DNA of 64,000 nucleotides from an uncultured Bacilli bacterium (GTDB taxonomy: Bacteria > Bacillota_I > Bacilli_A > RF39 > UBA660): the NCBI GenBank assembly GCA_947628895.1, contig CANRBS010000003.1, forward strand, positions 1,325-65,324, read 5' to 3'. Shown in pieces: positions 62,305 through 64,000 of the stretch. The position numbers were made by a program, and so were the translations under genes. Numbering within the stretch: position 1 is the stretch's first letter; each line of letters starts with the position of its first letter. The notes below the pieces were generated by a model. The model ran no database searches. It was not told the DNA's origin and saw only the letters and a program-made list of their open reading frames with translations.

Positions 62305-62451
62305 TCTCTTAAATACATTATATCATTAAATATTAAATATTTAGTTATTTTACATATAAAAAAGATTTACTTATTCATATTATATATTGATAGCAACTAT
62401 TGTTATCAAATATTTCACCTATAATGAAGCAAACATTATGAGAGGAGAAAT

Positions 62452-62946
62452 ATGAAAAAAGGAAAAAATATTTTAATTATTTTGTGCTTTGTATCAATAT
62501 TAATAATGTCAGTAGGTTACTCTACTTTTGCAACTGAAATTAAAATAGATGGTAATGCAGAAATCACTGGAGTATGGGATGTTAAAGTTTCTAATGTAGA
62601 AATTGAAAGTAAAAGTGATACAGCAAGTAGTAATACTCCTATTTTCACAGATAATACTATAACATTTGATGCTAAATTAAATAAACCAGGGGACTATGTA
62701 AAATATAAAATAACAGTTAAAAATGCAGGGACTATTGATGCTATTTTAAGTAATGTATTATGTATTTCAGATGATGAAAATGGTTCTAGTCAAATATTAT
62801 ATGAAACTACTAATTTAAAAAGTGAATTATTATCAGGAAATACAACTACATTTAATATAACAATTACTTATGATAAAAATACGACTAGTATACCAGATAT
62901 AAAAACTAAAAAATATACTGGGATAATTGAATATGAGCAAATGTAA
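62452..62946 (+). CDS. TasA/CalY-like small secreted protein with SipW-type signal region
   Basis: 164 aa. ...ILIMSVGYSTFATEIKIDGNAEITGVWDVKV..., ...NKPGDYVKYKITVKNAGTIDAIL.... GAGGAG lies upstream. Confidence 0.55.
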   Translation: MKKGKNILIILCFVSILIMSVGYSTFATEIKIDGNAEITGVWDVKVSNVEIESKSDTASSNTPIFTDNTITFDAKLNKPGDYVKYKITVKNAGTIDAILSNVLCISDDENGSSQILYETTNLKSELLSGNTTTFNITITYDKNTTSIPDIKTKKYTGIIEYEQM

Positions 62947-63021
62947 ACTAAAAATATATTTTAAATATATAAAATCAACAACTAATAAAGAAAAAGTATA
63001 TAATTCATTTTCACAATATAA

Positions 63022-64000
63022 TTTACTTTAATATATATTATAAAAGTTAAGAATAAAGGTATTATAATTTTAACACTCATATATTTAATTTTAACTATTA
63101 TATTACTTTGTTATAACTTTAAAATTTATACTAATATTATAAATCCAATATTTTTTACATTAATATCAATTTATTTAATTTATTATAATAAAAATAATTA
63201 TTTATATAGTAATGATAAAAAATATATATTTTTCACAATAATAATTTCAATTATATCATCAATCATATATTTCTATTTAGGATTTATATTCGGATTTAAT
63301 AAAAATCCATTTAGTCATGAATTATATAAAATAGTATTAAATATATTAATTTATATAATACCAGTTATAGGTATAGAATTAATAAGATTTACTACTATAA
63401 ATAAAAATAGATATAATAAACAAATTATAATTTTAATAACAATAATACTAACACTACTTGAAATAAAATATAATTTATTTATAAATAGTAATTTAAGATT
63501 AATATATAAATATATATGTTCTAATATAATACCTTTAATATTTAAAAATGTTTTATATACTTATATAGATAAAATATCATTTTATCCACTTTCTTTAATA
63601 TTTAGTATTGTTGATAATATTTTAATTTTATTATTACCTATATTACCTAATTTAAATTGGTTTATAAATGGTAGTACAAATATTATAAAATATTCTATTA
63701 TTTATGGACTATTTAATTTTAAATATGATAATAAAACTATAATAAAAATTAAATCATTTTTTAAATTAAAATATATTTTAAAATTATTATTTATAATTTT
63801 GTTTGTTTGCTTTATAGCTGGAATATTCAAATATAAAATAATTGCTATTTTATCAAATAGTATGGATCCTATATTTAATAGAGGTGACATTGTATTATAT
63901 AAAAAATTAGGTGATAAAGAATTAAGTAATCTTAATACTAATTCAATAATTGTATACAATATAGATGATAGATTAATTGTTCATAGAATTGTTAAAAAAA
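63022..64000 (+). CDS. Polytopic membrane domain fused to a SipW-type signal peptidase I; start codon unresolved, runs off the right edge
   Basis: Not in the ORF track. Frame 1 is stop-free for 326 codons from the TAA at 63019-63021 to the window end, which I consider improbable by chance in DNA this AT-rich. The last ~50 codons read ...ILSNSMDPIFNRGDIVLYKK...LIVHRIVKK (S26 Ser and His boxes). The upstream ~270 codons are hydrophobic helices. There is no in-frame ATG/GTG/TTG before 63799. The opposite-strand track ORF 63702-63959 is therefore rejected. Confidence 0.65.

Follow-up and report, generated by a model that had tools for sequence, protein, structure and literature searches.

Dedicated signal peptidases carry out the one enzymatic step that is shared by TasA, archaeal bundling pili, and Tafi-type fibers. 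TasA and the archaeal bundling pili assemble by donor-strand exchange (PMC9245690). Haloarchaeal Tat-fimbriae and related archaeal loci encode a pilin, the signal peptidase TafD, and the DUF5305 protein TafG, and peptidase-DUF5305 fusions have been described there, none of them with a polytopic N-terminal domain (PMC11821415, PMC12337348). Here we describe a gene at the end of a 64,000-nt stretch of DNA from an uncultured Bacilli bacterium of the rabbit gut (C3:1325-65324; the whole stretch is referred to as the window herein) that encodes a signal peptidase fused to a large membrane domain and that has no canonical start codon at the expected position. The source is a metagenome-assembled genome (MAG; 92% complete, 76 contigs), and the host contig ends 998 nt past the window. 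With moderate confidence, we favor the explanation that the gene encodes a functional fused membrane peptidase whose translation starts at an ATT codon by reinitiation after an upstream open reading frame (uORF).

Like SipW of Bacillus subtilis, Sec11 of the S26B family, and haloarchaeal TafD, the gene product has the peptidase fold, the Ser-His-Asp residues, and the SNSM, HR, and GDxNxxxD motifs. As with SipW and TafD, it is encoded beside genes for fiber subunits that are presumably processed. It differs from all three in carrying ∼236 extra N-terminal residues with eight transmembrane (TM) helices, and from SipW and TafD in lacking their C-terminal extension. Compared at the level of genes only, the locus resembles Tafi- and TasA-type loci in its three-gene core, with a small secreted subunit of the beta-sandwich type, its dedicated S26B peptidase, and, immediately downstream, a DUF5305 gene. 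In contrast to Tafi loci, the host is a small-genome gut Bacilli bacterium, the subunit is CARDB/DUF7507-like with a faint Peptidase_M73 signal, and the peptidase is fused to a polytopic domain and not to DUF5305. Unlike the Tafi and TasA loci, no TapA-like, TafC, or TafF genes were seen in the fusion locus.

A signal peptidase fused to a polytopic membrane domain

A sequence-only reading of the window had pointed to a 326-codon stop-free frame running from 63022 to the window end, in which ∼270 codons of consecutive hydrophobic helices lead into an S26 SipW-type peptidase. The frame indeed has no stop up to the window end, and in the sequence past 64000 it closes at a TAA (window-equivalent 64162-64164) for a total of 380 codons. 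Counted from ATT 63037-63039, the likeliest start codon (plus strand, as are all features of this locus), the protein would have 375 residues. The peptidase assignment was borne out by TIGR02228 (archaeal/endoplasmic reticulum-type signal peptidase I), which matched the C-terminal 110 residues with 78.4 bits against a cut-off of 51.85 (E 5e-22); the Bacillus SipW equivalog NF046067 gave 68.2 bits, far under its cut-off of 190. In an alignment of 54 family members, the SNSM, HR, and GDxNxxxD motifs were present and S275, M276, H316, R317, G334, D335, N337, and D341 were invariant. Upon Foldseek analysis of the full-length model, the beta domain matched human SEC11A/C (7p2p and 7p2q; E 1e-4 and 3e-4) and Streptococcus pyogenes SipA (4n31; E 5e-4). 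The C-terminal part thus belongs to the Sec11/SipW-type (S26B) signal peptidases.

The AlphaFold2 model of the full-length protein (mean pLDDT 85, pTM 0.77) has nine helices, at residues 7-26, 28-50, 61-85, 96-123, 128-149, 153-180, 185-199, 208-233, and 237-260, followed by a beta domain at 266-375. The first eight are predicted TM helices that, together with two short beta strands, make up the polytopic domain (residues 1-236; 63037-63744), in agreement with the hydrophobic helices read from the sequence. The ninth (residues 237-260; 63745-63816) is the predicted membrane anchor of the peptidase, oriented N-in/C-out. The peptidase domain (residues 266-375) begins at 63832, occupies the window up to 64000, and runs 161 nt past it, with the codons for catalytic Ser275 at 63859-63861 and for His316 at 63982-63984. 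Since lysine-rich loops alternate sides as expected from the positive-inside rule, the sequence fits a topology in which the N-terminus is inside, nine helices cross the membrane, and the C-terminal peptidase is extracytoplasmic.

The membrane domain belongs to no Pfam family and is a candidate for a new one. When the full protein was scanned with Pfam and NCBIfam, nothing matched its N-terminal part, a Pfam scan of 42 isolated membrane domains gave no match, and a PDB sequence search with the membrane-domain profile gave nothing at E≤10. The 54-sequence alignment nevertheless revealed many conserved positions, namely G82, G86, F87, P91, N102, P109, E114 (invariant), R117, N124, Y159, and P166, and further Y176, P201 (invariant), P204, W208, and Y223. 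The same alignment held no invariant His, Ser, Asp, or Cys within the domain, which argues against a hydrolase of known type; C161 was near-invariant in the 42-sequence set only. Foldseek with the full-length model returned peptidase matches only and none for the membrane domain. When the domain was modeled in isolation (pLDDT 89, pTM 0.84), a single PDB entry aligned over its whole length, the CAAX protease Rce1 (4cad; TM-score 0.52/0.50 over 256 columns).

The CPBP/Rce1 superfamily shares with the domain an eight-helix bundle of similar size and an E-x-x-R in helix 4, where E114-x-x-R117 occupies the position of the EExxxR of CPBP proteins. It differs in that none of the 42 membrane domains matched PF02517 (CPBP) at E≤1, compared with 57-86 bits for the genuine CPBP genes of the same genome, and in that motifs 2 and 3 are absent: neither FxxxH nor HxxxN/D was found, and the domain has no invariant or near-invariant His. 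We also compared profiles of the domain, built from 42 sequences and then from 250 (109 after filtering), by hhalign with genuine CPBP proteins, 17 in all, that this and related genomes encode. The hhalign probability was 3% and the score was no better than that of reversed or 30 block-permuted controls, and CPBP homology is not claimed. The domain is thus not demonstrable as a member of the CPBP family, and a catalytically inert Rce1-like fold, as suggested by the model, is a lead rather than a finding. APH-1 was reportedly described by Pei and colleagues in 2011 as a non-catalytic relative within the CPBP superfamily.

Gene fusion was one of three options that the sequence-only reading had left standing, next to a near-cognate start codon and a very recent loss of the start, and our results support a mixture of them. 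The fusion is real, and it is neither local nor an artefact but an old feature that is conserved throughout a family. With the full protein as query, we recovered 217 homologues at E≤0.001; among the 120 matches listed, lengths were 299-410 aa and identities 38-65% (a 95% relative apart), mostly with 90-98% query coverage. In the genomes of GTDB species we found 183 loci for a relative, almost all in rabbit-gut ("Lapin") MAGs labeled uncultured Clostridia or Bacilli; further relatives come from a rumen MAG, a Hadza human MAG, and UMGS1573. When 1.84 billion proteins were searched with a 42-sequence profile of residues 1-240, which covers only the membrane domain, 1,319 representatives of 50%-identity clusters passed E≤0.001, and among the 150 matches listed most had about the length of the fusion (∼350-410 aa) or were shorter, probably cut, pieces. 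When 399 genomes were sampled evenly across the phylum, the domain occurred in 12, 10 of them from the family of the window's own genome, with all but one of 16 matches lying in open frames of 371-398 aa; the exception was a marginal match (E 4e-4) in a 133-aa frame. Neither the listed profile matches nor the 399-genome sample contained a free-standing membrane domain, and our literature search for this fusion architecture found no description. What is new is a widespread, unnamed polytopic domain that is fused to a peptidase in every complete copy examined.

Loss of the ATG and selection on the gene

Up to 64000, the only in-frame ATG, GTG, or TTG codons are TTG 63799 and ATG 63862, and no such codon occurs in any frame between 62947 and 63060, in agreement with the sequence-only reading. 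TTG 63799 is codon 255 counted from ATT 63037 and lies within the predicted anchor helix that precedes Ser275; ATG 63862 falls after the catalytic Ser codon. To place this frame among those of the genome, we used 904 stop-to-stop frames of at least 200 codons, in which the distance to the first canonical start had a median of 4 codons and a 99th percentile of 74. The fusion frame, with 259 codons, was exceeded solely by one frame cut by a contig end, so its start-less pattern exceeds chance. The next seven most extreme frames, when translated, were antisense-looking or at contig edges, except C9:496-1755. We also asked whether non-canonical starts are common in this genome, and no other plausible gene of at least 200 codons was without a nearby canonical start. 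As a separate observation, C9:496-1755 (plus strand) is a 419-codon membrane-protein frame whose first canonical start is at codon 101 and whose upstream part looks like the tail of a metal-binding domain (IETVKIIRNIAHIEYKGKL...). A frameshift, a gene fusion, or another non-canonical start might account for it. Codons 1-254 of the fusion gene (63037-63798) have no internal in-frame ATG, GTG, or TTG, compared with a median of 9 in homologues, which may reflect the 18% GC content or an avoidance of internal starts behind a weak start codon.

Comparison with orthologues located the missing start. The family N-terminus M-[KR]-Y-[IL]-K-N-K aligned with I-I-K-V-K-N-K-G of the window, and the ATG of the closest orthologue (65% identity; L014, L015, L046) aligned base for base with ATT 63037-63039, which has near-cognate neighbors in ATA 63031 and ATA 63040. 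In the aligned start column of 80 related loci, 50 had ATG and five had GTG, most of them preceded by an AAGGTGA-like Shine-Dalgarno (SD) sequence. Where this column otherwise showed ATT, ATA, or TTA, the alignment was offset and a canonical codon stood one to three codons to the side, leaving only the window and its 95% relative without any canonical start. A sequencing or assembly error that hides a normal ATG might be suspected in a MAG of moderate quality. However, the ATT was present in all five independent assemblies of the species group (the window, GCA_947629235.1, two from ENA, and one from Logan), which come from different samples and share 92-96% identity in this region. A sequencing error is thereby ruled out for practical purposes, and we regard the residual chance of one as negligible. 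Sequence comparison thus indicates that an ancestral ATG became ATT 63037 in this species group. The near-cognate start proposed in the sequence-only reading agrees with this, although that reading did not single out ATT 63037, the orthologous codon.

For gene annotation the change has a practical consequence, as a caller limited to ATG, GTG, and TTG can start the window copy no earlier than TTG 63799 in the anchor helix. For instance, a synonymous TTA-to-TTG change has given the 95% relative an internal TTG, and a gene caller took this codon as the start of a 320-aa product.

Had the loss of the ATG silenced the gene, the intact frame would be the remnant of a young pseudogene. We therefore compared the window with the other lineage that carries the ATT, and found 21 synonymous and 21 nonsynonymous differences. 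For the whole gene, the ratio of nonsynonymous to synonymous divergence (dN/dS) was 0.22 (binomial p 7e-6) at a synonymous divergence (dS) of 0.104. For the 254 codons without a canonical start dN/dS was 0.17 (p 2e-5), and for the peptidase part it was 0.37 (p 0.06). Given that 6.5% of random single-base changes in the fusion gene create stops, ∼7.7 nonsense changes were expected under neutrality, and no stop (P = 5e-4) and no indel was found in 1,125 nt. This combination of purifying selection and an intact frame suggests that the membrane domain has been translated since the ATG was lost, and it follows that a near-cognate start must be in use. Because the ATT is shared by lineages at a dS of ∼0.10, the loss is also not very recent: the loss of the start itself was correctly anticipated by the sequence-only reading, its recency was not, and the other lesions by which that reading would have recognized a pseudogene are missing.

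In support of a pseudogene, a canonical start and an SD sequence are both absent, and a stand-alone SipW together with an ATG-started fused paralogue could compensate for its loss. Against it stand the common possession of the ATT at a dS of ∼0.10 and a dN/dS of 0.17-0.22 since then (p≤2e-5), in addition to the missing stops and indels. On this sequence evidence, an old pseudogene is excluded and a very recent one is unlikely; overall, we judge silencing to be improbable.

The same values bear on the possibility that translation starts at TTG 63799 or ATG 63862 and yields the peptidase part only, with the 254 codons upstream an untranslated leader. These two codons are the first canonical ones in frame. 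However, one lies inside the anchor helix and the other past the catalytic Ser. In addition, purifying selection acts more strongly on the 254 upstream codons than on the peptidase part (0.17 versus 0.37), and their homology to the family's membrane domain extends from end to end. We find this possibility hardly credible.

Probable initiation without a Shine-Dalgarno sequence

To assess how ribosomes might reach the start, we calculated SD:anti-SD duplex energies. Across 605 likely genes the genome median was -7.2 kcal/mol, which indicates that the organism uses SD sequences. Before ATT 63037 the energy was +2.9 kcal/mol, a value found in the weakest 1.3% of genes; with ATA 63031 and ATA 63040 included, the energies were +2.8 to +2.9 kcal/mol and the rank 1.3-1.5%. 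In the sister species, this SD-less site carries an unambiguous ATG, and initiation without an SD sequence at this position is therefore a property of the clade.

The best-supported alternative places initiation eight to ten codons downstream, at ATA 63064 or ATT 63067, guided by an AAAGG, so that the lysine-rich cytoplasmic tail would be missing. The AAAGG at 63055-63059, followed in frame by ATT 63061, ATA 63064, and ATT 63067 (alternative initiation region 63055-63069), is as the sequence-only reading had described it. It lies 4-7 nt before the 63064 and 63067 codons and gives -3.5 to -4.0 kcal/mol (-4.0 before 63067), a strength that is reached by ∼5% of random positions and not exceeded by ∼20% of real genes (∼19-20% of genes are as weak or weaker). 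Documented AUU and AUA starts in Bacilli depend on SD sequences (PMC13009471), and because those at known AUU and AUA starts are strong, the weak SD site before 63064/63067 remains a serious rival. On the other hand, the sister species has the same AAAGG and, as its only canonical start, the ATG aligned to 63037. Furthermore, conserved Lys-Gly codons in the family N-terminus MxYxKNKG dictate the AAAGG, and this K-rich N-terminal segment is conserved family-wide. We consider a start at these downstream codons possible but unlikely.

The spacer upstream of the ATT contains a uORF of 32 codons (62933-63031) that begins with an ATG in the last codons of the upstream pilin-like gene and ends with TAA 63029-63031, 5 nt before ATT 63037. 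ATA 63031 overlaps this stop by 1 nt. In both SD-less lineages, the uORF starts in the last pilin codons and spans the whole spacer; in the sister species it has 66 codons and stops 2 nt before the start. Gene callers have annotated the counterparts as 32-aa and 66-aa genes. When the spacers were shuffled, a bridging uORF arose in 3.2% of shuffles for the window and 0.18% for the sister species. Among the other loci with spacers of 40-200 nt, only five of 36 have a bridging uORF, and most have an AAGGTGA-like SD sequence.

Because no SD sequence lies upstream, we propose that ribosomes arrive by termination-reinitiation: they would translate the uORF from the end of the highly expressed pilin gene, stop 5 nt before the ATT, and restart there. 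The protein would still be made, at a lower level, from the ATT that replaced the ancestral ATG or from its ATA neighbors. As an inefficient restart codon, the ATT, or the ATA overlapping the uORF stop, would make the enzyme much scarcer than its substrate.

The uORF could alternatively be joined to the main frame by a programmed -1 frameshift, in which case ATG 62933 would be the true start. Consistent with this, the uORF begins with an ATG, its frame is offset by one base, and the two open frames overlap at 63022-63031. The overlap is, however, only 10 nt (TTTACTTTAA), with no X XXY YYZ slippery heptamer and no downstream GC that could form structure. The CTT TAA context would favor +1, into a closed frame, and in the sister species the uORF ends before a normal ATG and needs no frameshift. 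A frameshift is thus highly improbable.

Genes with AUU or AUA starts, namely infC and pcnB of Escherichia coli and infC, cvfC1, ccpN, and citZ of Staphylococcus aureus, are like the fusion gene in having a near-cognate AUN codon at the start position and, likely, a role in low expression. The fusion gene has both a near-cognate codon at the orthologous start and a coding sequence under selection. The known starts follow SD sequences that are strong or extended, and different genera share them, whereas this ATT has no SD sequence, is limited to one species group, and follows a bridging uORF. In E. coli, AUU and AUA starts gave about 1-2% of AUG, and 0.1-3% in a second construct (10.1101/063800); in S. 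aureus they gave about 10% of AUG (PMC13009471). A natural change from ATG to an SD-less ATT start that, by sequence comparison, is still under selection is also new.

We know of no documented case of SD-less reinitiation coupling at a near-cognate start. Elsewhere in the same genome, infC (contig C67; L098 ∼2000-2040, minus strand) has a strong GGAGGTG followed 6 nt later by ATA-GCT-AAG (I-A-K-Q...), much like infC of S. aureus with its AUA start. Five codons upstream is an in-frame ATG that overlaps the GGAGGTG and is without an SD sequence of its own. The genome thus probably uses an ATA start for infC.

The gene module and its role

The gene upstream of the fusion gene (62452-62946) encodes a 164-aa pilin-like protein, the presumed peptidase substrate, and has a strong SD sequence of its own (GAGAGGAGA, -9.1 kcal/mol). 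Homologues of this protein precede the fusion gene in 77 of 80 related loci, and homologues of the downstream gene follow within a few bases in 75 of 80. The pilin-like protein has an N-terminal signal (...MSVGYSTFATE...) and, by Pfam, a CARDB/DUF7507-type beta-sandwich; its conserved N-terminus reads MKxxKNIII...MAVGYSAFATQL (also written MKxxKNIII..LLMAVGYSAFATQLTLNGTAEI). Pfam matches over 31 members were weak, to DUF7507 in 30, CARDB in 15, DUF11 in 11, and TasA/camelysin in five, and no PDB sequence match was found. A gene of this kind is thus present where the sequence-only reading had placed a TasA-like neighbor, but the TasA label itself is weakly supported, with Peptidase_M73 (PF12389) matching five of 31 members at a best E of 0.003.

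Most spacers between the pilin and fusion genes measured 14-190 nt, with a subset of loci at about 900-1,000 nt, so the 90-nt spacer here is ordinary and only its lack of an SD sequence is special. The idea that the pilin gene abuts the fusion gene in most family members was dropped after this measurement. A scan of 62250-63250 for promoters and terminators found sites no commoner than in shuffles and no terminator, and is uninformative on whether the fusion gene has its own promoter. For the record, the spacer holds two sigma-70-like pairs within 62975-63039 (TCAACA-18-TATAAT and TTCACA-18-TATATT), likewise no commoner than in shuffles.

The downstream gene encodes a DUF5305 protein, as established with PF17231 in the relatives (E 4e-17 in the 95% relative, which is full-length, and E 7e-16 in the 65% relative), whereas the contig end interrupts the window's own copy. 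In the final 53 nt of contig C3 (L009:4271-4323, placed about 260-310 nt past the window end), which do not align with four related assemblies, an added stop gives a DUF5305 product of 267 instead of 319 aa; the likely cause is an artefact of the assembly end rather than a genuine truncation. By its adjacency to a subunit gene and a DUF5305 gene, as read from the sequence, the fusion gene sits in a module of the TasA/Tafi kind.

A second, divergent fusion occurs in the same genome on contig C40 (L124:2173-6014, minus strand), with 375 aa, 28% identity, and a normal ATG. It is preceded by two genes for 231-aa pilin-like proteins (MESERNTRLIALVALVA...), and in the DUF5305 position is a gene for a 378-aa protein with two TM segments that does not reach PF17231. 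A gene for a sensor histidine kinase/response-regulator hybrid lies just upstream of this module. The genome also has a classical stand-alone SipW and two TasA-like genes at 46086-47940.

The history of the window's own module may be separate. Close orthologues of the window copy were found in only two of 49 species of the same genus (95% and 66% identity). The remaining same-genus copies are at most 35% identical, more distant than the copies in "Clostridia" MAGs from the same rabbit samples (40-50%), which suggests that the module was acquired horizontally within the rabbit gut community.

In the explanation that we favor, the gene would encode a 375-residue membrane protein in which an eight-helix domain and an anchor helix carry an extracytoplasmic Sec11/SipW-type signal peptidase. 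The fusion would be the middle gene of a conserved module (pilin-like protein, fused peptidase, DUF5305 protein) that corresponds to the pilin/TafD/TafG core of TasA-type and archaeal Tafi-type donor-strand fibers. The peptidase most likely removes the signal peptide of the neighboring pilin-like protein, as gene order would suggest. The membrane domain may act as a non-catalytic scaffold that holds the signal anchor of the substrate, or the DUF5305 partner, by the active site; this role is a weakly supported conjecture. Extended further, an inert Rce1/CPBP-like scaffold, a Sec11-type peptidase, and DUF5305 might together form a bacterial complex that is dedicated to fiber subunits and resembles the eukaryotic signal peptidase complex with its accessory subunits, and in this species synthesis of the fusion protein would depend on SD-less reinitiation at an AUU codon after the bridging uORF; we regard this whole picture as rather unlikely.

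Several points weigh against the favored explanation. The translation and N-terminus of the fusion protein are predictions from sequence. The selection test compares the window with one other ATT lineage, that is, two lineages and 42 substitutions. Known AUU and AUA starts in Bacilli depend on a strong, extended SD sequence (PMC13009471), and none precedes 63037. Near-cognate reinitiation after the uORF is deduced from geometry and shuffles in two related lineages. Pilin processing is deduced from synteny, and the stand-alone SipW and the second fused paralogue weigh on it as well. As for the scaffold role, the Rce1 match is weak (E 1.6, probability 0.63, with every other match at a TM-score of ≤0.23), and this neighbor receives no sequence support.

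Taken together, the fusion bears on how dedicated signal peptidases select their substrates and on the role of DUF5305. Its conservation across the family suggests a function as a membrane partner, one that in the model systems is either separate or lacking, and the fusion offers a defined construct for testing that function. The ATT start, for its part, is a clean natural case of a gene that is under selection after losing its ATG and SD sequence, and would be useful for testing reinitiation and near-cognate initiation in low-GC Gram-positive bacteria.

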